Assembly: GCA_030587475.2 (NCBI GenBank)
Contig: JAUQYZ020000196.1
Coordinates: forward strand, 1-11,141
Direction of reading: 5' to 3'
DNA: 11,141 nucleotides
Origin: Candidatus Sigynarchaeum calidifontis
Lineage (GTDB): Archaea; Asgardarchaeota; Lokiarchaeia; Sigyniarchaeales; Sigyniarchaeaceae
The position numbers and the translations under genes are program-made. Positions within the stretch are counted from its first letter, which is position 1; each line of letters opens with the position of its first letter. This document shows positions 1 to 10,995 of this stretch, in pieces. The notes beneath the pieces were generated by a model. That model did no database searches, was not told the origin of the DNA, and worked only from the letters and a program-made list of their open reading frames with translations.

Positions 1-333
1 GTCCTCGTTGATCGGCGTGGGCAGGCAGATGATGATGAAGTCGCTGTTCTGGATCGCGTGAACTGTATCGTTACTATACTCGATCATCTTCTTTTCATTG
101 CAAGCCACGAGCAGTTCCTCGAGCCGCGGCTCGTCAACGAACGTCTTGTTCTTCTTCAAGTCATCCAACAACGATGCGTTGATATCGACCCCGATCACGC
201 GGAACCCGTGCGATGCGAACTCGACAGCAGTCGGCAAGCCGATTCGTCCCAGGCCCAGCACGGAAATAACGGCCGATTTCGCCAGTACCTTGTCTTCCAG
301 GATCGCGAAGTTGGATGGTTGCATCATGATCAT
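1..333 (-). CDS. Nucleotide-sugar 6-dehydrogenase (UDP-glucose/GDP-mannose/UDP-HexNAc dehydrogenase family), N-terminal part; runs off the left edge
   Basis: Not in the ORF track. Manual translation gives MIMMQPSNFAILEDKVLAKSAVISVLGLGRIGLPTAVEFASHGFRVIGVDIN...DEPRLEELL...SDFIIICLPTPINED, with the Rossmann GLGxIGLP, GxDI, EP and ICxPTP motifs. An in-frame TGA lies directly upstream of ATG 333. Alternative starts at 327 and 324. Confidence 0.92.
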   Translation of the reverse strand, partial: MIMMQPSNFAILEDKVLAKSAVISVLGLGRIGLPTAVEFASHGFRVIGVDINASLLDDLKKNKTFVDEPRLEELLVACNEKKMIEYSNDTVHAIQNSDFIIICLPTPINED

Positions 334-408: not shown

Positions 409-3081
409 TCAGAAGATGCCCGATCCGAGGATAGGCCGGCTCACCAGCACGTCCGGCTCGACGTGCCATTTCGAGACATGCGCATCCTTGAACGCGTCAA
501 CGACGTGCCTGGTATGTTCCCGTTCGACGAGCACCATGACGCAACCGCCCAGCCCTGCTCCCGATATTTGCGCTCCCAAGACACCAGGTCGTGTTTTCAT
601 GTAGTCCACGATGAAATCGATTTCTGGAATGCTGCACCGGTAACCACCAGGCACGTTTTCTATCGGTGTATCAGCATCGTATAGGCAATCAAGAAACGCC
701 TCGCTGAAAACGAGCCGGAATGGTCGAGGCTGCGAGCCTTGCGAGAAATCATCAAACGAAACAACGCGATCCCCGTCGTGAGACACGCACATCATCTGCC
801 CGATGGCGCCGATCGAACCGCTGGACAAGAGGTCCATGAACCGCCGGCTCCTGTGGCACTCGGCGATGCCATACACGAGCACTTCCCGCAGCGAGATCAC
901 GTCATCATCATCATCGAACGAGCTGAATTTCTTGCGCAGCGATTGGATGGTCTCGGAATGGAGATACAAGTTCAGATCGCCGAGCCGAATCGATTCCGAA
1001 ACGGCCTTCAACAGGCGATACACGTCACGGGGCGGCACGTGCAAGTTTTCGCCCGACACGTCCCGCAAATGATGCAGCCTGGCCTCGTGCTCGGGATGCC
1101 GCTCGCGCAGGATCTGGAAGCCGATTTCATAGGCGAGCACCTTCTCGTTGAACTGCCGCAGCTCGCTGCCGGACTTCTTGGCCTTCCGCATCGAGTTGAT
1201 CACGAGCAAATCGATGCCGGGCGGGAACGATGCAGACCCCTTGATCTCGAAGGGGAAAAAGCCCATGCGGGTCACGTGCCCGGGGCGGGCGAGCTTGATC
1301 GCCGCGTGGTCCGACGAGCCGCCCCGCGTCCCGACGAACCACTCGCCCTCGCCGCACAGGTCGATGAACTCCGACGGCTTCAGCGGGACGCCGTTCACGT
1401 TGATCAAGCACTCCAACATCGCCACGACGAGTGCCGACGAGCTCGACAGCCCGGCTGCTTGTGGTATGTCACCATGCACGTAGACGCTCGCCCCGTGCAG
1501 CGTCTTGGTAGGCATGCTGGCCTGGAGCCGCAACGCCGCGGCCTTCAAGTAGTTCGACCAGTCCCCCCCGGCATCCCGCACCATGGCATTTATTCGCTCG
1601 TTCGTGATGAAGCCGAACCAGTCGCTCCACTCGACTGACGAGATGATTTCCCCGATATCGAACACGCATGCCTTGTGCACGTCGTGGTCGTGGTTATACG
1701 CGACGATGACCGGGTCTTCGCGCGGCGCCGCGACGACGATGACCTCGCGGTCGATCGCGATCATGTTGACATCGCCACCGCGGTGGTCGACGTGGCGGCC
1801 CATGAGGTTCACGCGCCCCGGCGCCCTCGCGATGAAGGCTCCGGCGGCCTCGGGAAACTTCTCCTTGAACCCCGCGAGCGCCGCCAGGTACTGCGCAACC
1901 TTCTCATTAATGCGAGTATAGCCGACCCCGTAGATTTGCTCCATGCGAGCGAGCACCCGAGCGTCCCGCGCCTCGAAAGCACGGATCCAATCGTCGACAG
2001 GTCGCAAGCCGGGGATCATGCCCCGCGCCTCCCGGTCATGATCGACCGCTCGCTCCTTCGACGCGACGTACTCGTTAATTTTGACGAGCTCCTCCGGATT
2101 GTTGAAGGAGAGCAGCTCCTCGGGCCGCAGGAGGGGAACGGGAAGGATCTCGTGCCCGTGTTCGCTGAAAATCTGGACGATGTCCGTCAAGTATTCCTCG
2201 TTCTGTGCATTGTCGGACAGGATGCGGTCGATGTACATGTACCACAAAGCGCTCCTCGCGAGGTAGACGGAGACGTTCACGTGGCGGGCGGTTCGCTCGA
2301 TGTCTTCGGGATCCAGCAGCTCGCCTCGCAACCGGAATGCCCGGGGAACCGGCCCGATAGCCCGATGGATCGCTTCGAGCGTCACTTGGCCACGAGGCAC
2401 CGCCGCCGCGCCGCCGAACACGATGCCGGCAATCTCGGGGAACAGTTTCCGCGCCCGCTGCTCGTCCTTCAAGATGCGGATCATGGCTTGCCGTGTCGCC
2501 TCGATGATTTGGACGATATCGACGGGTTCCCGAGCCGAACCGATCACGCCCTCGATTTCCTTGGCGACGGCAGCCTTCATGATGTCCCAGTACTCGATGG
2601 ATGCGACGACCGCCCCGTCCTTCCCAGTCACGATCCTGCCGGAGTCGGGCGAGAACCGTTTTTCCTTGACGAGGAGGGCCATGCCGGGCGCATCCGCCTT
2701 GTATCGCGCGATCAGCCGCTCGATCGCCCCGGGCTCGACATGGGCATCGCCAGGCACGATGAGCACGTCGCCAGCAAAGCCCGATGCCTGGAGATAATGT
2801 AGCCCCGCCTTTGCTGCGTTTCCAGTCCCTCGCGGCATGGCCTGGTAGACGTAGGCGACGTCCGGGAACCGCTTCGACACCACGCCCATGACCTGGTCGC
2901 TGAATGCGCCGACGACGATGACGTTATGCACCACTCCCGCAGCACGCAAGTTTTCAAGCAGCCTGATGATGGCCGGCTTCCCCGCGATCTCGAACGTCGA
3001 CTTGTGCTTGTCCTTGACGCCCATGCGGGTGCCTTTCCCGCCGGCCATGATAATGGCGGCGATGCGCTGCGACTCGACCAT
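409..3081 (-). CDS. Bifunctional sugar-1-phosphate nucleotidyltransferase (GlmU N-domain-like) / GHMP sugar kinase (galactokinase/galacturonokinase-like) fusion
   Basis: N-half has AIIMAGGKGTRM, QxxPRGTGxA, VPGD, NAQNEEYLTDIV and SFNNPEEL. C-half has APGRVNLMGRHVDH, IPQAAGLSSSSAL, the catalytic-Asp region GGSSDH and GAQISGAGLGGC. Start placed at ATG 3081 (MVESQRIAAII, ~890 aa); the ORF is open to 3138. Confidence 0.9.
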   Translation of the reverse strand: MVESQRIAAIIMAGGKGTRMGVKDKHKSTFEIAGKPAIIRLLENLRAAGVVHNVIVVGAFSDQVMGVVSKRFPDVAYVYQAMPRGTGNAAKAGLHYLQASGFAGDVLIVPGDAHVEPGAIERLIARYKADAPGMALLVKEKRFSPDSGRIVTGKDGAVVASIEYWDIMKAAVAKEIEGVIGSAREPVDIVQIIEATRQAMIRILKDEQRARKLFPEIAGIVFGGAAAVPRGQVTLEAIHRAIGPVPRAFRLRGELLDPEDIERTARHVNVSVYLARSALWYMYIDRILSDNAQNEEYLTDIVQIFSEHGHEILPVPLLRPEELLSFNNPEELVKINEYVASKERAVDHDREARGMIPGLRPVDDWIRAFEARDARVLARMEQIYGVGYTRINEKVAQYLAALAGFKEKFPEAAGAFIARAPGRVNLMGRHVDHRGGDVNMIAIDREVIVVAAPREDPVIVAYNHDHDVHKACVFDIGEIISSVEWSDWFGFITNERINAMVRDAGGDWSNYLKAAALRLQASMPTKTLHGASVYVHGDIPQAAGLSSSSALVVAMLECLINVNGVPLKPSEFIDLCGEGEWFVGTRGGSSDHAAIKLARPGHVTRMGFFPFEIKGSASFPPGIDLLVINSMRKAKKSGSELRQFNEKVLAYEIGFQILRERHPEHEARLHHLRDVSGENLHVPPRDVYRLLKAVSESIRLGDLNLYLHSETIQSLRKKFSSFDDDDDVISLREVLVYGIAECHRSRRFMDLLSSGSIGAIGQMMCVSHDGDRVVSFDDFSQGSQPRPFRLVFSEAFLDCLYDADTPIENVPGGYRCSIPEIDFIVDYMKTRPGVLGAQISGAGLGGCVMVLVEREHTRHVVDAFKDAHVSKWHVEPDVLVSRPILGSGIF

Positions 3082-3235: not shown

Positions 3236-3406
3236 TCACGATTCTTGCCGGCGTTCGCTCGTTTCACCAGAGAAGATGCGTTTCGTTCGTTCCAGGTCGG
3301 CCGCCATCTCCTCTCGTGTTTCTTCTTTCGGGTGGACGTGCCCGGCCGCGATGTATTCCATCATCTCGTTGATCGCGACCTTTGCGGCAGGGATCGCGGG
3401 ACGCAT
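3236..3406 (-). CDS. Small 56-aa hypothetical protein or gene remnant
   Basis: Manual translation: MRPAIPAAKVAINEMMEYIAAGHVHPKEETREEMAADLERTKRIFSGETSERRQES*. Protein-like composition and host-like codons (ATC, AAG, GAG). It fills the gap upstream of the fusion gene. No family recognised. Confidence 0.4.
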   Translation of the reverse strand: MRPAIPAAKVAINEMMEYIAAGHVHPKEETREEMAADLERTKRIFSGETSERRQES

Positions 3407-3585: not shown

Positions 3586-4608
3586 TTGAACCTCATGATC
3601 ACGGGCGCGTGTGGTTTCATCGGTTCCCATCTGGTGGACTTTTGCCTGTCGAAAGGGCATCGCGTCCTCGCTACAGTCAAGCCAGGCATGGATCCGGTCA
3701 ATCTACGCCATGTCAATTGCAAGGGAAAGAAGCCACCATCGGGACTCGAGATCGTGGAGATGGACGTCCGCGACGCGATGAGCGTGCACTCGATCATCGA
3801 GCGATTCAAACCGGACGCCATCTTCCACATGGCCGCGCAGAGCCTCGTCCAGCCATCCTGGGAGGATCCCGTGGAGACCATCGACACGAACGTGAACGGC
3901 ACCGTGAACGTGTTCGAGGCAGTGAAGCGGTCGGGATTGAAGACACGCATCGTGGTCGCGTGCAGCAGCGCGGAATACGGCGTGATCTCGAAAGACGACG
4001 TGCCCATCAAGGAGACACTTCCCTTGCAGCCGCTCCATCCCTACGGAATCAGCAAGGTCGGTCAAGACTTGATGGCACGCCAGTACTTCGCCAACTTCGG
4101 CATCGACACGGTCAGGCTGCGGTACTTCAACCAGACTGGCATCCGGAAGGTGAGAGACGCGTGCGCCGATTTCGCCATGAAAATAGCCGAGATTGATGCC
4201 GGAAAAGCCGAGCCGGTGATGCATGTAGGCAATCTAGAGACGCAGCGCGACATTCAGGACATCCGGGACACGATCGCGGCCACGTGGCTGGCGTTCGAGA
4301 AAGGCGAGAAAGGCGAGGTCTACAACATCTGCACGGGCGTGCCGACCCGCATACGTGATGCGCTCGAGGTGCTGCTCAGCTTTTCATCGAAGCGGATCAC
4401 GATAATCGAAGGCACACCCGAGAAGATGCGGATCCAGGACGAGCCGGTCATCGTCGGGGATAATTCGCGTTTCATCAAGGCGACCGGCTTTCGCCCGGTT
4501 TACACCATCCGTGACACGCTGCGGTCGATGTTCGATTATTGGAAGGGCTATTACTCGTCGAATAACCCGGCAGGATATTACCAATCTTTTTACTTGAACG
4601 TGGCTTGA
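3586..4608 (+). CDS. Extended SDR, GDP-mannose 4,6-dehydratase / GDP-4-keto-6-deoxy-sugar reductase (Rmd-like) family
   Basis: ITGACGFIGSHL, HMAAQS..SWEDP...NVNGT, SSAEYG, YGISK (YxxxK), RYFNQTG and VGNLETQRD. It lacks the GMD-type STSE signature, so it is more reductase (Rmd)-like. Confidence 0.85.
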   Translation: MNLMITGACGFIGSHLVDFCLSKGHRVLATVKPGMDPVNLRHVNCKGKKPPSGLEIVEMDVRDAMSVHSIIERFKPDAIFHMAAQSLVQPSWEDPVETIDTNVNGTVNVFEAVKRSGLKTRIVVACSSAEYGVISKDDVPIKETLPLQPLHPYGISKVGQDLMARQYFANFGIDTVRLRYFNQTGIRKVRDACADFAMKIAEIDAGKAEPVMHVGNLETQRDIQDIRDTIAATWLAFEKGEKGEVYNICTGVPTRIRDALEVLLSFSSKRITIIEGTPEKMRIQDEPVIVGDNSRFIKATGFRPVYTIRDTLRSMFDYWKGYYSSNNPAGYYQSFYLNVA

Positions 4609-4809: not shown

Positions 4810-5754
4810 ATGCTGAAGGACAAGAACGTCCTGGTCACTGGCGCCGCTGGTTTCATCGGTAGTAACCTGGTGGACGCGCTGCTTGCTGACGGCGCCCGTG
4901 TCGTCGGCTTGGACAACATGTTCAACGGCCGGATGGAAAACCTCGCCACGGCATCAACCTCGCCCCGCTTCACGTTCGTGAAGGGCGACGTCCGGGACAT
5001 GGATTTCTTGCTCGAAGCCATGAAAGGCATCGACATCGTCTACCACGAGGCCGCGTTCACGAGCGTCCCGCAGTCCGTCAAGATGCCGCAGCTCTGCAAC
5101 GACGTCAACGTCGGCGGCATGGTCAACGTCTTGAACGCGGCGAGGATCCGGGACGTGAAACGGGTCGTGTTCGCGTCCAGCTCGGCAGTCTACGGGGACA
5201 CCCCGACGCTGCCGAAACACGAGGAGATGCCGCTGCACCCGATCTCGCCCTACGGCGTCTCCAAGATGGCGGCCGAGGCATATTGCATCGCCTACCACCA
5301 CGTCTACGGCCTTGAAACCGTCGCTCTCCGTTATTTCAACGTTTTCGGCTCCCGCCAGAAGGATTCCCCATACAGCGGCGTCATCGCTATTTTCCTCGCC
5401 AAGATCATGAAAGGCGAGAACCCGACCATCTTCGGCGACGGCAAGCAGTCCCGCGACTTCACCTACGTGAAGGACGTCGTCCGCGCCAACATGCTGGCGG
5501 CCACGTCGGTAAACGCCGCCGGCAAGGCCATCAACGTCGCGTCGGGCAAGCCCATCACGCTGAACGAGCTCACGGGGATCATGTTCAAGGCTTGCAAGCA
5601 AGACAAGTTGAAGATCCAGTACGCCGCCAAGCGGACGGGCGACATCCTCCACAGCTTCGCGGACATCGCGCTCGCGAAAAAAGTCCTGGACTTCGTCCCG
5701 CAGTACGATGCCGTGAGCGGCTTCGAGGATCTCGTGAAATCAATGAAGGGATGA
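4810..5754 (+). CDS. NAD-dependent epimerase/dehydratase, UDP-glucose/UDP-GlcNAc 4-epimerase (WbpP/GalE-like extended SDR)
   Basis: VTGAAGFIGSNL, ASSSAVYG, SPYGVSK, LRYFNVFGxRQ, YSGVI, IFGDGKQSRDFTYV and RTGDILHS. Confidence 0.9.
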   Translation: MLKDKNVLVTGAAGFIGSNLVDALLADGARVVGLDNMFNGRMENLATASTSPRFTFVKGDVRDMDFLLEAMKGIDIVYHEAAFTSVPQSVKMPQLCNDVNVGGMVNVLNAARIRDVKRVVFASSSAVYGDTPTLPKHEEMPLHPISPYGVSKMAAEAYCIAYHHVYGLETVALRYFNVFGSRQKDSPYSGVIAIFLAKIMKGENPTIFGDGKQSRDFTYVKDVVRANMLAATSVNAAGKAINVASGKPITLNELTGIMFKACKQDKLKIQYAAKRTGDILHSFADIALAKKVLDFVPQYDAVSGFEDLVKSMKG

Positions 5755-5774: not shown

Positions 5775-5828
5775 TCATTTTTGCCAGACTTCCAGCCCCG
5801 TGAAGTTGAACTTGAACGGCAGGATCTG
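5775..5828 (-). repeat. Direct repeat copy A: orphan 3' end of the GHMP kinase gene (QILPFKFNFTGLEVWQK*); att-like
   Basis: 48/54 nt identical to 6717-6770. 5797-5828 is identical to 6739-6770 (CCCGTGAAGTTGAACTTGAACGGCAGGATCTG). Confidence 0.95.
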
Positions 5829-5918
5829 CCGCCGTGTTAAGCGTGCAGGCGATGGCCTAGAGCTGTTTAATGGGTATATATGCGTTGATTTATGCAAAAG
5901 ACAACCAATACAGATTAA

Positions 5919-5946
5919 TTCTCAAAACACTTGATCTTGTTGAGAA
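5919..5946. promoter_or_regulatory. Inverted repeat TTCTCAA-N14-TTGAGAA in the AT-rich TA promoter region; possible operator
   Basis: Perfect 7-bp arms about 40 bp upstream of ATG 5983. TATATA at 5876-5881 and SD-like GAGGTG at 5966-5971. Confidence 0.35.
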
Positions 5947-5982
5947 AAACAGTCCCATCGCACGAGAGGTGCCGGTATTACC

Positions 5983-6296
5983 ATGAAAGGTAAAAAAAAA
6001 AGAATGGAGACCTCGTAAGTCTTCTATCCATTCTTCGATCCAACTCGAACATTCTTCAACGCGAGTACAAGGTCGCTCGCATCGGTATATTTGGTTCACG
6101 AGCACGTGGCGATAGCTTACCTCGCAGTGATATAGACATCCTCGTGCAATTCAAGGAACCGGTTGGTTTGTTCCTTTTTTCCGGGCTCAAACAGTTCCTC
6201 GAGTCGATCTTCGGGCTTGATGTGGATCTTGCAACTCCTGATGCCCTGCGGGACGAGTTTCGCGAGGACGTGTTAAAAGAGGTGGCTTATGCATGA
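5983..6296 (+). pseudogene. mntA: Minimal nucleotidyltransferase (MNT, MntA-type antitoxin), frameshifted at an A10 tract
   Basis: The ATG 5983 frame gives MKGKKKRMETS*. The -1 frame, opening after TAA 5991-5993, gives KNGDLVSLLSILRSNSNILQREYKVARIGIFGSRARGDSLPRSDIDILVQFKEPVGLF...VDLATPDALRDEFREDVLKEVAYA*, with GS and DxD motifs. That frame has no ATG/GTG/TTG before the catalytic motifs. Its stop overlaps the HEPN start (ATGA). Confidence 0.88.
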
Positions 6297-6685
6297 AACC
6301 ACCAGCAAAATCCTCGAAGCCACAACGCCAACGCAAGCCAGCAAAGGGTCGGTCTGTCAAGCTATACTTGAAAGATATTCTTTCAGCGATTAACAAGATT
6401 ATTACGTGGACAAAAGGAATGAATTTCGAAGAATTCTCCAAGAATGACATTCTCGTTGATGCAATCGTTCGGAACTTGGAAATTATCGGGGAGGCAGCAA
6501 GTGTTCTCCCTCGGAATGTAACATCAACACATTCAGAAGTTCAATGGAAGCAAGTTGTCGGTATGCGAGATATCATCGCCTATGGATATTTTAAGGTGGA
6601 TCTCAATATTATCTGGACGACAATCTCAGAAAACCTACCTAAACTGCATCCGGTAATCGAGAAAATGATATCTGAAACCGAGTAA
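6293..6685 (+). CDS. hepT: HEPN/DUF86 family toxin (HepT-like RNase) with altered catalytic motif
   Basis: LYLKDIL..I..I, DAIVRNLEIIGEAA, W..VVGMRDIIAYGYF.VD..IIW. The canonical RX4HxY motif reads RDIIAYGY. Confidence 0.9.
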   Translation: MKPPAKSSKPQRQRKPAKGRSVKLYLKDILSAINKIITWTKGMNFEEFSKNDILVDAIVRNLEIIGEAASVLPRNVTSTHSEVQWKQVVGMRDIIAYGYFKVDLNIIWTTISENLPKLHPVIEKMISETE

Positions 6686-6716
6686 AGAAACCAGGAATAA
6701 ATTATAGCCATTATCC

Positions 6717-6770
6717 TTATTTCTGCCACACTTGCAAGCCCGTGAAGTTGAACTTGAACGGCAGGATCTG
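6717..6770 (-). repeat. Direct repeat copy B: current 3' end of the GHMP kinase gene (QILPFKFNFTGLQVWQK*)
   Basis: Matches 5775-5828 with 6 mismatches, all in the distal 22 nt. Confidence 0.95.
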
Positions 6771-7718
6771 GAACCCGGCGGCGACGATGTCCTTCTTCAA
6801 GCCGTATTCCTTGCCGGTTGCCGACAAGATGACCGCAGACCCGCCGCCGCCCGCCCCGTTCACCTTGAAGCCGAGCGCCCCGTGCTTCGTCGCGAGCTGC
6901 TCAAGGGTCGCGATCTCGCTCGTCGTGATCCTCTCGTGCAGCGCCTTCTGCGCGGCCCAATTCTTGTTCATGATGGCCCCGATGCGGTCGATGTCGCAGC
7001 GGTGCACGGCCTGGACCATTTCCTTGGGGCACGCCTGGAGCGTGTTGAACGCGTCGATGGTTCGTTTTTCTCCTTTTTCGTAGTTCTCGATGACCTTCAA
7101 GTGCATGTCGCTGGAGCTGCGGGATCCGAGGTACACGAGGATCATCTGCTGCTCCAGCTGCCATGTTAGCTCGGGCTTGACATCGATCTGGGATATTCGG
7201 ACCTTCGGGTACTCGATCTCCATGTAATTGAAGCCACCGAACGCCGCCGCGTATTGATCCTGGACGCCGCTTTGCAAGTGAAGCTCTTCGGTCTCTAACT
7301 TGTGCGCTAGCTCGGCAATCTCGTGGTTCACGTAATGGTGGCCATTCAGCACTGACAGCGCACCGATCATGGCGACGGCGATGCTGGCACTCGTTCCCGT
7401 GCCGCAACCGGGCGGGGCATCGGACCGGGCGTAGATCTTGAGCCCTTGCTTGATGCCCAGGCGTTTGATCGCCGACTTGAGGATGTCGAGGATGCCGTTG
7501 TACTCGATCTTGCGGTAATCTTGGATTTCGGTCGAGATGTCCAAGTTCTCCGAGATGATGTCGATCACGGGCGACCCCGCTTGCGGGTACACGCGCACGT
7601 AGCTGTACAAGTCGATGCAGAAGTTGAAGACAGCGCCCGCCTTGCAAAACCACGTGTCTGTCCAGCCGCCCACGTCGCAGATCCGCACGGGCGCCCGCGC
7701 GAAGATGATTTGTTCCAT
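6717..7718 (-). CDS. GHMP sugar kinase, HddA (D-glycero-D-manno-heptose-7-phosphate kinase)/fucokinase-like family
   Basis: RAPVRICDVGGWTD, DAPPGCGTGTSAS, ETEELHLQSGVQDQYAAAFGGFN and KVNGAGGGG. Start reassigned to ATG 7718 (MEQIIFARAP, 333 aa). Confidence 0.88.
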   Translation of the reverse strand: MEQIIFARAPVRICDVGGWTDTWFCKAGAVFNFCIDLYSYVRVYPQAGSPVIDIISENLDISTEIQDYRKIEYNGILDILKSAIKRLGIKQGLKIYARSDAPPGCGTGTSASIAVAMIGALSVLNGHHYVNHEIAELAHKLETEELHLQSGVQDQYAAAFGGFNYMEIEYPKVRISQIDVKPELTWQLEQQMILVYLGSRSSSDMHLKVIENYEKGEKRTIDAFNTLQACPKEMVQAVHRCDIDRIGAIMNKNWAAQKALHERITTSEIATLEQLATKHGALGFKVNGAGGGGSAVILSATGKEYGLKKDIVAAGFQILPFKFNFTGLQVWQK

Positions 7719-7883: not shown

Positions 7884-9164
7884 ATGGCCAAGCAATGGAT
7901 AAACGTGGCGGCCGTTGGCACGGGCCATATATTCGCGGACGCGCACCGCAAGGCATACACGAACGCCGCGAGCACGAACAACGTCGTCGTCGCGCTTTGC
8001 GACATTCGAAAAGATCTTGTTGAAGAACAATTGAAAATCTTGAAAAAGGAATATGAAAAACAGCTGGTCAAGGTTAAAAAAAAGGAGAATGCTGCTCAAG
8101 CCGAGCGGATAAAATTTGGCCTCGATCACTTGAAAAGCTTCACGGATTTTGGCAAGATGCTCGATGCAGTCGAGGGCAATTGCGACCTGGTCGATAATTG
8201 CACGCCCGGGCGCACGCACGTGCCGCTGTCGGTGCAGGCCATGGAGCACGGGTACCACGCCATGGCCGAGAAGCCCCCAGGCCTCAACTGGTGGGACGTC
8301 AAGCGCCTCGTCGATGCCGAGAAGCGAACGGGCAAGTGCTACCAGCTCAATGAAAACGTGTGCTACGAGCGCCCGGTGCAGGCGATGCGCCGGGTGATAG
8401 CCAACGGCGACCTCGGTGCCGTCGTCGAGATCGATGTGCACTTCGGTCACGGTGGCCCGTATGTCGGGTACCATTTTGGGGAGTCTGGCCTCCCCCACTT
8501 CATCGACCCCGTGTGGTCGGGTGGTGGCTGCCTGCAAGACCTCGCGCCCCACGGCATCTCCCGGGCCTTCTGGCCCGTGGGCACCGGAGCCAAGGTCCTC
8601 TCGTGCACCACCAAGATACTCGAGCGCCGCCAGGCCCCTCGCATGATGTCCGGCAAGCCGTTCGACAACAAGCTTGACGATTACGCGGAAGCGGAGCTCG
8701 AGATGTGGGATCCCCGCACGAAGCGGCCCTTTGCCATGAAGGTCACGACATCGTGGTGCGGCGGCTTCGCGTTCCCGTTCAGCATCGAGGGCGAGAAGGG
8801 AACCATGAGCATCGGTCACGACCCGCAAAGGAAGGTCTATGCTCCCGTCATCTTTGCCGACGACGGGGACAAGTATTTCCCACTCGACGAGGACAACTGG
8901 GATCCCTTCGAGGGTTACGCGCGCGAGGTGCAGATCTTTTGCGAGAACTTGCTCCATGGCAAGCCATCGAACACGCCCGCCGAATACGCCCTGCGTTTGC
9001 AAGAATGCCTCTCCATCCAGTATTTTTCCAAGCTCGTGAAGAAGAAAGTGACCATCGAGGAGATGGAAGAGTGGGGGGCGGGCATCGCTGCCAAGAACAA
9101 GAGCTACCAGGATGGCGTGGACGAGATCGCCAAGGCACTCACGGGAGCCGTCGACTTGAAATGA
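7884..9164 (+). CDS. Gfo/Idh/MocA family oxidoreductase
   Basis: N-terminal Rossmann VAAVGTGHI..AH, ALCD, CTP..H, EKP and GGGCLQDLAPH (GGGxLxDxxxH). Start reassigned to ATG 7884 (426 aa) because the upstream part of the track ORF overlaps the kinase on the opposite strand. Confidence 0.9.
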   Translation: MAKQWINVAAVGTGHIFADAHRKAYTNAASTNNVVVALCDIRKDLVEEQLKILKKEYEKQLVKVKKKENAAQAERIKFGLDHLKSFTDFGKMLDAVEGNCDLVDNCTPGRTHVPLSVQAMEHGYHAMAEKPPGLNWWDVKRLVDAEKRTGKCYQLNENVCYERPVQAMRRVIANGDLGAVVEIDVHFGHGGPYVGYHFGESGLPHFIDPVWSGGGCLQDLAPHGISRAFWPVGTGAKVLSCTTKILERRQAPRMMSGKPFDNKLDDYAEAELEMWDPRTKRPFAMKVTTSWCGGFAFPFSIEGEKGTMSIGHDPQRKVYAPVIFADDGDKYFPLDEDNWDPFEGYAREVQIFCENLLHGKPSNTPAEYALRLQECLSIQYFSKLVKKKVTIEEMEEWGAGIAAKNKSYQDGVDEIAKALTGAVDLK

Positions 9165-9727
9165 ACGCGCGGATCAAGATCATTGCAAAGATTGCCGTGT
9201 TCGGCGGTTTCATCCTTTTTTCTTGTCTTTTTGGCACTATCATTTTACTCGATCCCCCGGCACCTTCCCGGGTCGGTGATGCCCCTTACGTCGTTAACCT
9301 GAAACAGCTGGTCGATTATCGCATCCAGCTAGAGGGGCAGCCCGTCGTGATCCTGAGCTGGACCAGCGATTTCCACGTGAACGCCACGACCGGGGATGTT
9401 CGGTTCAACGTCTCGGATCATTTTTACAACATCTCGAGACAAGTGTTGCTCAAGGCCTGGGCGCCGGGCGGCGTGAAACCCGCGGGATCGCCGATCGGGA
9501 ACGGTACCTACGTCGTTGTCAAGGGCATCTGCAAGCTCCTCTCGGATGCGATAATAGAAGGGATGGAGATCCACGTGCTCGACCCGGACAACGCCTACGT
9601 GGTTTCCATATCCGGGCTCGTGGTGATCGTCGTGATGCTGTTTGTCTATTTCCGTCTCGACATCAAGCGACTCCAGTTCCAGGTAAAGACGAAACCAGAC
9701 AAGGACCGTGAAAGCGGGGGTGCATGA
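9161..9727 (+). CDS. Hypothetical membrane protein: N- and C-terminal TM helices around a beta-rich, possibly OB-fold-like, external domain
   Basis: ATGA overlap with the upstream gene; 188 aa from MNARIKII. Hydrophobic segments IAVFGGFILFSCLFGTIILL and YVVSISGLVVIVVMLFVYF. Confidence 0.8.
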   Translation: MNARIKIIAKIAVFGGFILFSCLFGTIILLDPPAPSRVGDAPYVVNLKQLVDYRIQLEGQPVVILSWTSDFHVNATTGDVRFNVSDHFYNISRQVLLKAWAPGGVKPAGSPIGNGTYVVVKGICKLLSDAIIEGMEIHVLDPDNAYVVSISGLVVIVVMLFVYFRLDIKRLQFQVKTKPDKDRESGGA

Positions 9728-9730
9728 CCT

Positions 9731-10312
9731 TTGCCAGATTGGTTCGCCCATCTCATGCTCGCGTACGTCGTGTCAGCGTGCTTGCGACTCGATGCGAGGA
9801 AATGTACGATTTTTTTCATCGGGAACGTGATGCCCGACCTCGTCCGCATCATGGTCCTGGCGGACAACATCGTTCATTCCGATTTCTTGTATTATTTCAT
9901 CGCGCTGCCGATCAATACTGCATCGCATTCACTCCTGGGCGTGTTCGCATTCGCGCTGTTCATCTCGCTCTTCTTCGAGCCAACACTCCCGGCAGGCATC
10001 TCGGGCGGGAATTTACACGCTATCAATGCCAGGAAGCCCGTGCTCCTCGACCACCTTGCCCGATGGTGGCAAAAAGTATCGATACGCCCATTTTTCTTGC
10101 TAATCTTCGGAGGCATCGTACACTTGTTACTAGATACGTTCATGTGGCCATACGGCGGGGGCATCTTCTGGCTCTACCCGCTCACCGATGCATGGTTCAG
10201 GTGGTCGTTCGGCGCGTGGTGGCCCTCCACGTTTGATGGAATCCTCTGGCTCTTGCCTTTTTTCGTCGCTACCATCGCTTGCGAAACCATTTTCAAGATC
10301 AAGCACGCGTAG
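9731..10312 (+). CDS. Membrane-bound metal-dependent hydrolase (YdjM-like)
   Basis: MPDWFAH, PDL, SHSL and HLLLD motifs; multiple TM segments; TTG start 3 nt after the upstream stop. Confidence 0.82.
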   Translation: MPDWFAHLMLAYVVSACLRLDARKCTIFFIGNVMPDLVRIMVLADNIVHSDFLYYFIALPINTASHSLLGVFAFALFISLFFEPTLPAGISGGNLHAINARKPVLLDHLARWWQKVSIRPFFLLIFGGIVHLLLDTFMWPYGGGIFWLYPLTDAWFRWSFGAWWPSTFDGILWLLPFFVATIACETIFKIKHA

Positions 10313-10323
10313 ATGCACGAACC

Positions 10324-10995
10324 ATGACAGAACCCAAGACACCACCCCCCGAGTACCACGCGACGAGCGCCGCGATCAACGCTGCCGGAGCCGTGTGCTT
10401 CTCGATCGCGGCGGCTTGGCTCTTGCAATCACTGGAAATCTCGGCACCAGCCGGTCATGCCAACTACGCGGCGATCTACGCCGCTGCAACGATCTCCTTC
10501 TGGTCCTTGCAATCCGCGTATCACGTTTTCTTGCACGCCGGGCGACAAAGTCTCAGGTTCAGGAACCTTGATCGCGGCAGCACCTTCGTCTTGATCGCGG
10601 GCATCTTCACCCCGCTCATCGCGGCACGCCAGGCCATCCCCGGGGCTTTCATCGTGCCGCTCCTCGCCTTGTGGGTAGCCGCGGCCGGGGGCATGGTCTT
10701 GTTGATATCGTGGAAGCTAGTGCCACGCAAGCTCACGCCGCTGGCGTCGCTCGCCATGCTGTCGGCCGGCATCGCCGCCACGGCCGCGTTCCAGATAGCT
10801 AGCGGGACCATCCCGGTTTGGGGCATCATCTCGCTCGTCGCGGGCATCCTCCTCGTCCTCGCCGGCGGCGCCGTGTACGCGATCCAGAAGCCGAACTTGG
10901 CACCGGGACATTTCGGGTTCCACGAGCTCCACCATTCACTGGTTCTCGCGGGCTCGCTGGTGTTACACATGCTCGTCGCGGCCTTGCTCGCGTGA
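10324..10995 (+). CDS. Hemolysin-III / PAQR (CREST superfamily) 7-TM protein
   Basis: SAYH, RNLDRGSTFVLIAGIFTP (cf. RLDHxxIYxLIAGxYTP), GGAVYAIQKPN and FGFHELHHSLV...H. Start reassigned to ATG 10324 (223 aa). Confidence 0.88.
   Translation: MTEPKTPPPEYHATSAAINAAGAVCFSIAAAWLLQSLEISAPAGHANYAAIYAAATISFWSLQSAYHVFLHAGRQSLRFRNLDRGSTFVLIAGIFTPLIAARQAIPGAFIVPLLALWVAAAGGMVLLISWKLVPRKLTPLASLAMLSAGIAATAAFQIASGTIPVWGIISLVAGILLVLAGGAVYAIQKPNLAPGHFGFHELHHSLVLAGSLVLHMLVAALLA

Follow-up and report, generated by a model that had tools for sequence, protein, structure and literature searches.

The 11,141-bp contig of Candidatus Sigynarchaeum calidifontis analysed here (JAUQYZ020000196.1, our contig C151; the entire contig is called the window below) carries a gene in which a GlmU-type sugar-1-phosphate nucleotidyltransferase and a kinase of the galactokinase (GalK) subfamily of GHMP kinases are joined in one polypeptide. 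As a whole, our observations are best explained by a bifunctional sugar-salvage enzyme, an explanation that we consider likely, and the general function that its conserved residues predict, in which a kinase supplies a uridylyltransferase, is one that we hold with good confidence. The gene and its position are as follows.

409..3081, minus strand: nucleotidyltransferase-kinase fusion, whole gene, 890 amino acids (aa) (translation, Pfam, NCBIfam)

A previous reading of this DNA, made from the sequence only, had described one open reading frame (ORF) with a GlmU-type nucleotidyltransferase domain, lacking the hexapeptide acetyltransferase domain, and a complete GHMP kinase, and had named beforehand a stop or a frameshift between the domains as refuting. 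Neither occurs in 409..3081, which is a single stop-free frame of 890 codons, and the unbroken frame, Pfam, NCBIfam, AlphaFold2 and Foldseek all bear the description out. The stop codon is TGA at 409-411 and the start is ATG at 3081, with GGGAG about 10 nt 5' of it. Alternative in-frame starts lie at ATG 3129, which would give 906 aa, the size of the database copy P0003, and at TTG 3138; the start at 3081 is favoured because homologues open 8-10 residues ahead of the first strand. The whole-protein AlphaFold2 model has a mean predicted local distance difference test (pLDDT) of 92.7 and a predicted template-modelling score (pTM) of 0.68.

The nucleotidyltransferase half

2026..3081, minus strand: GlmU-type sugar-1-phosphate uridylyltransferase domain, residues 1-352, including a C-terminal helical arm (helix 329-351) (Pfam, NCBIfam, PDB alignment, AlphaFold2/Foldseek)
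3001..3048, minus strand: nucleotide-binding signature, residues 12-27, MAGGKGTRMGVKDKHK (alignment to GlmU)
2314..2592, minus strand: helical insert, residues 164-256 (PDB alignment, AlphaFold2)

At E <= 0.1, Pfam reports solely NTP_transf_3, NTP_transferase, IspD and the GalK/GHMP domains in the fusion; the first two lie at residues 9-184 above their curated cut-offs, and no Hexapep domain is found. The GlmU models of NCBIfam match with their own N-terminal part only, over about 170 positions and with 108 bits against an equivalog cut-off of 611, and every NCBIfam match of the fusion is far under its equivalog cut-off. In PDB alignments the domain is colinear with GlmU residues 3-169 and 157-241, and the insert of about 90 residues (164-256) falls between the equivalents of GlmU E154 and N169. 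AlphaFold2 folds this insert into five helices and a hairpin; its sequence is variable among homologues, and it is nearly missing from two Hydrogenedentes homologues. The model of the N-domain alone is of high confidence (pLDDT 94.6, pTM 0.92), and its best 35 Foldseek matches in the PDB are all GlmU, ahead of ST0452 and RmlA. Helix 329-351 of the model corresponds to the GlmU arm that normally runs into the acetyltransferase domain.

The residues that define a GlmU-type pyrophosphorylase are present, namely the G-x-G-T-R-M...K signature and the equivalents of Q76, G81, D105, N169 and N227. Within the signature, G15, G17, R19, M20 and K27 align with GlmU G14, G16, R18, M19 and K25. Conservation was read from 99 aligned full-length homologues that share 35-54% identity with the query; all statements on invariance below refer to this alignment. 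In it K27, Q80, G85, T86, G111, D112, E163, N269 and N327 are invariant, and these nine residues align, in order, with E. coli GlmU K25, Q76, G81, T82, G104, D105, E154, N169 and N227. In GlmU, K25 is the catalytic Lys, Q76 and G81 read the uracil, D105 and N227 are metal ligands, and the others include ligands of the sugar. Since the equivalents of the uracil-reading Gln and Gly are invariant, UTP is the predicted nucleotide.

The same genome holds a standalone copy of the N-domain, 348 aa long, 46% identical and with the helical insert kept (contig C247:5168-6214, minus strand, equal to L106:5168-6214). It sits between a short-chain dehydrogenase/reductase (SDR) and a 486-aa protein without a Pfam match; the latter was considered as a hidden kinase and ruled out. 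In a quick IQ-TREE tree the copy nests in the archaeal clan beside the window's own N-domain (support 99); the fused gene has apparently been duplicated in part.

The kinase half

412..2025, minus strand: galactokinase-subfamily GHMP kinase, residues 353-890 (Pfam, NCBIfam, PDB alignment, Foldseek)
1774..1815, minus strand: sugar-binding signature, residues 423-436, RVNLMGRHVDHRGG (residue mapping, invariance)
1423..1464, minus strand: GHMP motif II (phosphate-binding loop), residues 540-553, PQAAGLSSSSALVV (alignment)
1303..1332, minus strand: catalytic-base loop GTRGGSSDHA, residues 584-593 (alignment)
541..561, minus strand: GHMP motif III GAGLGGC, residues 841-847 (alignment)

Three Pfam domains cover this half above their curated cut-offs: GalKase_gal_bdg at 404-453 (PF10509, 57 bits against a cut-off of 23), GHMP_kinases_N at 510-595 and GHMP_kinases_C at 813-865. 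The galactokinase models of NCBIfam match the C-terminal half as well (TIGR00131 with 129.8 bits, cut-off 226.65). The best PDB match is the human N-acetylgalactosamine (GalNAc) kinase GALK2, with 95 bits, and Foldseek returns human GalK, GALK2 and Pyrococcus GalK with TM scores of 0.81-0.86 on the target. What marks a galactokinase is found here: the signature, motifs II and III, and the equivalents of catalytic Arg37 and Asp186. No variation is seen at R423 (R37 in human GALK1), in the GLSSSS loop or in GAGLGGC; D591 occupies the catalytic-base position, opposite the Asp of GALK2 GGGMDQ, and is kept in at least 90% of the homologues. With its catalytic positions either invariant or kept in at least 90% of the homologues, neither half is likely to be dead, and, on these alignments, both look active.

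Where the pocket departs from the galactokinases, it does so in a consistent manner. Mapped onto human GALK1, R423, R429, H430, D432 and H433 take the places of R37, E43, H44, D46 and Y47, so that the galactokinase motif GEHxDY reads GRHVDH in the fusion, with both Glu43 and Tyr47 replaced. R429, whose position is also that of the Glu in GALK2 GEH, is invariant in all 99 homologues, and H433 is at least 90% conserved. R586, likewise invariant, aligns with another Glu of GALK2 (TRGG in the fusion, TEGG in GALK2); thus Arg replaces each of the two Glu that GALK2 has, by alignment, near the sugar. With its charge reversed at two places, the sugar pocket points towards an anionic substrate. In the structures of GalK, Glu43 holds the C6 hydroxyl of galactose, and the plant galacturonokinase lacks this Glu; for the fusion, these two points serve as leads only.

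A second GalK-like GHMP kinase of the same genome, 468 aa long with the signature APGRLDVMGGIADYSG (contig C153, equal to L107:7710-9116, plus strand), has Gly at the Glu43 position, so that this position of the pocket varies between paralogues; its Gly pocket presumably resembles that of the plant L-arabinokinase.

Distribution and phylogeny

The previous reading had taken this for an independent fusion; its distribution shows that it is not a one-off event in this genome. More than 1000 proteins of 489-1558 aa match the fusion at E <= 0.001, nearly all of the best 120 with the full domain set, and an alignment-based pattern scan of one genome per species found relatives in at least 537 stretches. 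By its sequence the protein is a member of a large, mostly bacterial, uncharacterised family of predicted bifunctional salvage enzymes and is not private to this genome. The carriers are mostly metagenome-assembled genomes of Planctomycetota, Verrucomicrobiota, Lentisphaerota (including Victivallis vadensis), Chloroflexota, Bacillota, Spirochaetota, Armatimonadota, Latescibacterota and Hydrogenedentota. Their copies bear generic names in the source databases, 'NTP transferase domain-containing protein' or 'galactokinase family protein', and the automatic label of the Joint Genome Institute (JGI) is 'N-acetylgalactosamine kinase'.

Apparent split forms, a nucleotidyltransferase followed by a kinase, occur at L108:4622-7419 and L109:4623-7422, on long-read metagenome contigs with other fragmented genes, and are probably frameshift errors. 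The short 'standalone' kinases P0131 and P0148 directly follow nucleotidyltransferase fragments on long-read contigs with other broken genes; they are read as artefacts of frameshifts and were rejected as natural split genes.

The closest homologues bear the labels Lokiarchaeota (one, at 71% identity) and Promethearchaeota (three, at 47, 43 and 40%). A FastTree tree of 84 proteins groups the sequences with archaeal labels, together with the unlabelled ones nearest to them, in a single clan of 11 (support 99), which adjoins a pair from Latescibacterota (support 96), the remaining tree being bacterial. This topology fits a single transfer between the domains of life, probably from bacteria to archaea, a direction that the tree, built unrooted by a quick method, does not itself fix. 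The few Asgard archaea within an otherwise bacterial tree would make a clean case of a glycan-metabolism gene crossing two domains of life.

The bin from which the contig comes (4.99 Mb in 269 contigs, 89% complete) has an estimated contamination of 5.2%, the window is a complete contig of only 11 kb, the family is mostly bacterial, and none of the 150 other sampled genomes of the same phylum holds an orthologue, the best E-value there being 5e-13, to generic nucleotidyltransferases or kinases. One might thus suppose a bacterial contaminant in an archaeal bin, and a gene that is not archaeal at all. We consider this improbable: the composition of the contig agrees with the genome (tetranucleotide correlation 0.95, rank 32 of 175 contigs; guanine-plus-cytosine content 57.7% against 54.2%), the nearest relatives carry Asgard labels and fall in one clan, one of them on a contig with TBP, Arf-like GTPases, Roadblock and CDC48, and the 46%-identical paralogue of the N-domain lies on a 70-kb contig of the same genome. 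The host genome also encodes an actin-family protein (436 bits).

Gene neighbourhood

1..333, minus strand: N-terminal part of a nucleotide-sugar 6-dehydrogenase that runs off the end of the contig, co-oriented with the fusion and 75 nt past its stop
3586..4608, plus strand: divergent SDR of the epimerase/dehydratase family, LegB/GalE-like
4810..5754, plus strand: divergent SDR whose best model is TviC (UDP-GlcNAcA C4-epimerase), 222 bits, under the equivalog cut-off
6717..7718, minus strand: HddA-like GHMP kinase, 333 aa, common to Lokiarchaeota contig L110
7884..9164, plus strand: GFO/IDH/MocA oxidoreductase, 426 aa, common to L110

The 71%-identical Lokiarchaeota relative, on L110, is found with the same set of fusion, SDRs, HddA-like kinase and GFO/IDH/MocA oxidoreductase. 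ORFs were called and clustered in 88 loci, 82 of which hold a recognisable fusion ORF (62 of these 82 with at least 8 kb of total flank). A single conserved operon was sought across the 88 loci and not found, the top neighbour family reaching 12. Despite this weak overall context, the SDR signal beside the fusion is specific. A TviC-like epimerase stands right beside the fusion, co-oriented and within 46 bp, in four bacterial loci of different clades (L022, L063, L064 and L087). It also lies next to the fusion, or not far from it, in L018 and in the window; among archaeal loci, a second one has it adjacent. The TviC-like epimerases of the fusion loci share 44-71% identity with one another. A nucleotide-sugar dehydrogenase lies beside the fusion in L022 (TviB-like, 482 bits) and L035, and about 5 kb off in L081; in a Clostridiaceae locus a TviB-like dehydrogenase and a TviC-like epimerase are found immediately 5' of the fusion. 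The loci with such neighbours are spread over several separate clades of the tree.

Other elements of the window were noted in passing. A 56-codon ORF at 3236-3406 (minus strand), which starts MRPAIPAAKVAINEMMEY, sits in the 504-nt gap from the fusion gene to the divergent SDR. Between SDR and HddA-like kinase, the window (5775-6770) and L110 (L110:4468-6026) carry differing toxin-antitoxin-like inserts, that of L110 being a VapB antitoxin with PDDEXK. Past the GFO/IDH/MocA gene, the plus-strand ORFs at 8705-10236 have no Pfam or NCBIfam match, and an HlyIII-family membrane protein lies at 10279-10995.

Proposed function and alternatives

We propose that the C-terminal GalK-type kinase would transfer phosphate from ATP to the anomeric hydroxyl of a free monosaccharide, and that the N-terminal GlmU-type half would then condense the sugar-1-phosphate with UTP, giving the UDP-sugar and pyrophosphate; for the order of the reactions and the use of UTP we infer from the chemistry of GlmU and GalK. 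As to the sugar itself, an acidic (uronic) substrate has, in our judgement, somewhat less than an even chance. The most likely candidate is a galacto-configured acidic sugar, N-acetylgalactosaminuronic acid (GalNAcA) or galacturonic acid (GalA). GalNAcA, or alternatively GalA, fits because an N-acetylhexosamine (HexNAc)-type nucleotidyltransferase pocket is combined with a GalNAc-kinase-like fold bearing two Glu-to-Arg exchanges and with recurring TviB/TviC-like partners. The joint product of these partners would be UDP-GalNAcA or UDP-GalA, and the fusion would then form a salvage branch converging on the UDP-uronic acid that the dehydrogenase and the TviC-like 4-epimerase next to it produce de novo. 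It is even more tentatively that we extend this proposal to the family, which might give prokaryotes a single-polypeptide conversion of free hexuronic or N-acetylhexosaminuronic acids (GalNAcA or GalA) into their UDP forms, present in many polysaccharide-degrading phyla and acquired once by Loki-lineage Asgard archaea. If this is true, bacteria and archaea would have an anomeric kinase activity on uronic acids that is not known to have been described for them before, and prokaryotic nucleotide-sugar metabolism would have an extra salvage branch that is now annotated 'NTP transferase domain-containing protein'.

Several points weigh against this proposal. Intact motifs are no guarantee of activity, as the pyrophosphorylase half of a zebrafish fusion is nearly inactive in vitro (PMC3938481). 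The geometry between the two domains is uncertain in the model, as its pTM indicates, and the pocket of the N-domain has acquired no new invariant basic residue suited to a carboxylate. The genomic context is weakly conserved: SDR epimerases occur in 12 of the 88 loci, GFO/IDH/MocA oxidoreductases in 10, ABC ATPases in 9 and sulfatases in 5, and a nucleotide-sugar dehydrogenase in 3, not counting the truncated copy of the window, which stayed out of the clustering. Most loci are without sugar context, and others adjoin GH127 and GH42-like hydrolases, PIG-L, KduI and NagA/NagB-like genes. A sulfated sugar, at which the five loci with sulfatases hint, was set aside; the carrier phyla are generally rich in sulfatases.

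The substrate could instead be neutral, GalNAc, N-acetylglucosamine (GlcNAc) or a neutral hexose, in which case the resulting UDP-HexNAc would go on to the adjacent dehydrogenase and SDRs for oxidation and epimerisation. The nearest solved kinase is indeed the human GalNAc kinase, the nucleotidyltransferase pocket has the residues of GlmU, a HexNAc-1-phosphate enzyme, the dehydrogenase is co-oriented only 75 nt downstream, and PIG-L and NagA/NagB-like neighbours occur in other genomes; the JGI label of the homologues points the same way but is an automatic one. This reading, however, leaves unexplained why Arg is invariant at both GALK2 Glu positions, and every cell makes UDP-GlcNAc de novo, so that a dedicated feed to TviB/TviC-like enzymes would be unneeded. 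We therefore rate it as unlikely, if deserving of serious attention. The previous reading had the fusion feed the downstream dehydrogenase and SDRs, which survives as one of two readings; salvage in parallel to these enzymes fits better with the invariant Glu-to-Arg exchanges and the TviB/TviC-like neighbours.

Two further possibilities bear on activity and on the anionic pocket. That one half is catalytically silent, the kinase-like half being a sugar sensor in the manner of Gal3p or the nucleotidyltransferase half a vestige, draws on the presence of Gal3p, a galactokinase-like sensor, among the PDB matches of the fusion and on the barely detectable pyrophosphorylase activity of the zebrafish protein (PMC3938481); with the catalytic positions of both halves conserved across phyla and two domains of life as described above, a pattern typical of selection for catalysis, we find it quite improbable. 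An anionic substrate compatible with the two Arg residues would also be N-acetylmuramic acid (MurNAc), whose lactyl carboxylate they would bind, and the fusion would then be a GHMP-based analogue of AmgK/MurU, leading from MurNAc through MurNAc-1-phosphate to UDP-MurNAc in peptidoglycan recycling. The logic equals that of the AmgK/MurU route, and most carriers are peptidoglycan-bearing bacteria. Yet the family is retained in Asgard archaea, which are without murein (one such gene being the one near TBP, Arf-like GTPases and Roadblock), mur or peptidoglycan-recycling genes are not recurrent beside the fusion in the surveyed loci, and GalK-type kinases prefer galacto-configured sugars, so that of all the readings weighed here this one seems to us the hardest to believe. 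Salvage of a galacto-configured uronic acid remains the reading that we prefer for the substrate.

Comparison with known enzymes

The logic of a kinase joined to a pyrophosphorylase for salvage, which the previous reading borrowed from Fkp/FKGP of Bacteroides and plants, fits the fusion. In both, an N-terminal nucleotidyltransferase and a C-terminal GHMP anomeric kinase convert, or would convert, a free sugar into its NDP-sugar in two steps. The subfamilies differ, as that reading had also stated: Fkp combines a GDP-fucose pyrophosphorylase (Pfam Fucokinase, PF07959) with a fucokinase-type GHMP kinase and uses GTP, whereas the fusion has a GlmU-type nucleotidyltransferase with the uracil-reading Gln and Gly and a kinase with the galactokinase signature. 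PF07959 is not matched by the fusion in Pfam at E <= 0.1, there is no Fkp chain among the 38 PDB sequences that match it at E <= 0.001, and galactokinase and GlmU models match best; NF009948 is absent from its 25 best NCBIfam matches and does match the neighbouring HddA-like kinase. By these profile and structure matches the fusion is not a member of the Fkp or the GlmU family.

Fkp is not the sole precedent for a natural kinase/nucleotidyltransferase fusion. The zebrafish glucuronokinase/putative UDP-GlcA pyrophosphorylase, DrGKUP, likewise has an N-terminal bacterial-type nucleotidyltransferase and a C-terminal GHMP kinase for salvage of a uronic acid into its UDP form (PMC3938481). Compared by description, it differs in its nucleotidyltransferase of about 260 aa, aligned by its authors with RmlA-type enzymes, and in its kinase of the glucuronokinase subfamily (PMC3938481); the fusion has a 352-aa GlmU-type nucleotidyltransferase with a helical insert and a GalK-subfamily kinase. 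The DrGKUP fusion is restricted to eukaryotes, the prokaryotic relatives of its nucleotidyltransferase being unfused (PMC3938481). A 2024 paper on chimeras names just Fkp and GKUP as natural fusions of this kind (PMC11267548), and a phylogenetic study of Fkp from 2025 is silent on relatives of the galactokinase type. Our search of literature and structures brought up neither a paper nor a structure for the family, no assayed member of it and no characterised enzyme that pairs precisely these GlmU-type and GalK-type subfamilies; for 'AbGHMP' (PDB 9ulx) it gave no paper.

Taken singly, each half has a familiar counterpart. The fold of the GlmU N-domain, its signature motif, its uracil, metal and sugar ligands and its long helical arm are all kept in the fusion, which differs in having a kinase where GlmU has its left-handed beta-helix (LbH) acetyltransferase and in the added helical insert. 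With the galactokinases GALK1 and GALK2 it shares the fold, the galactokinase signature, the catalytic Arg and Asp and motifs II and III; it differs in the Arg for GALK1 Glu43 and the His for Tyr47, and in that the kinase is joined to its pyrophosphorylase. In plants, GalA is taken through both of these steps by the galacturonokinase GalAK and the UDP-sugar pyrophosphorylase USP. Salvage enzymes that fuse a kinase to a pyrophosphorylase are valued for one-pot synthesis of nucleotide sugars, and if uronic or N-acetyl-uronic acids were accepted, the present family would give direct access to UDP-GalA or UDP-GalNAcA. Parallels in this respect are engineered chimeras such as NahK-GlmU and ScGalK-ScGPUT (PMC11267548), which also hold both activities on one chain but are man-made, and in which the order with the nucleotidyltransferase first, that of the fusion, is generally the more productive (PMC11267548).

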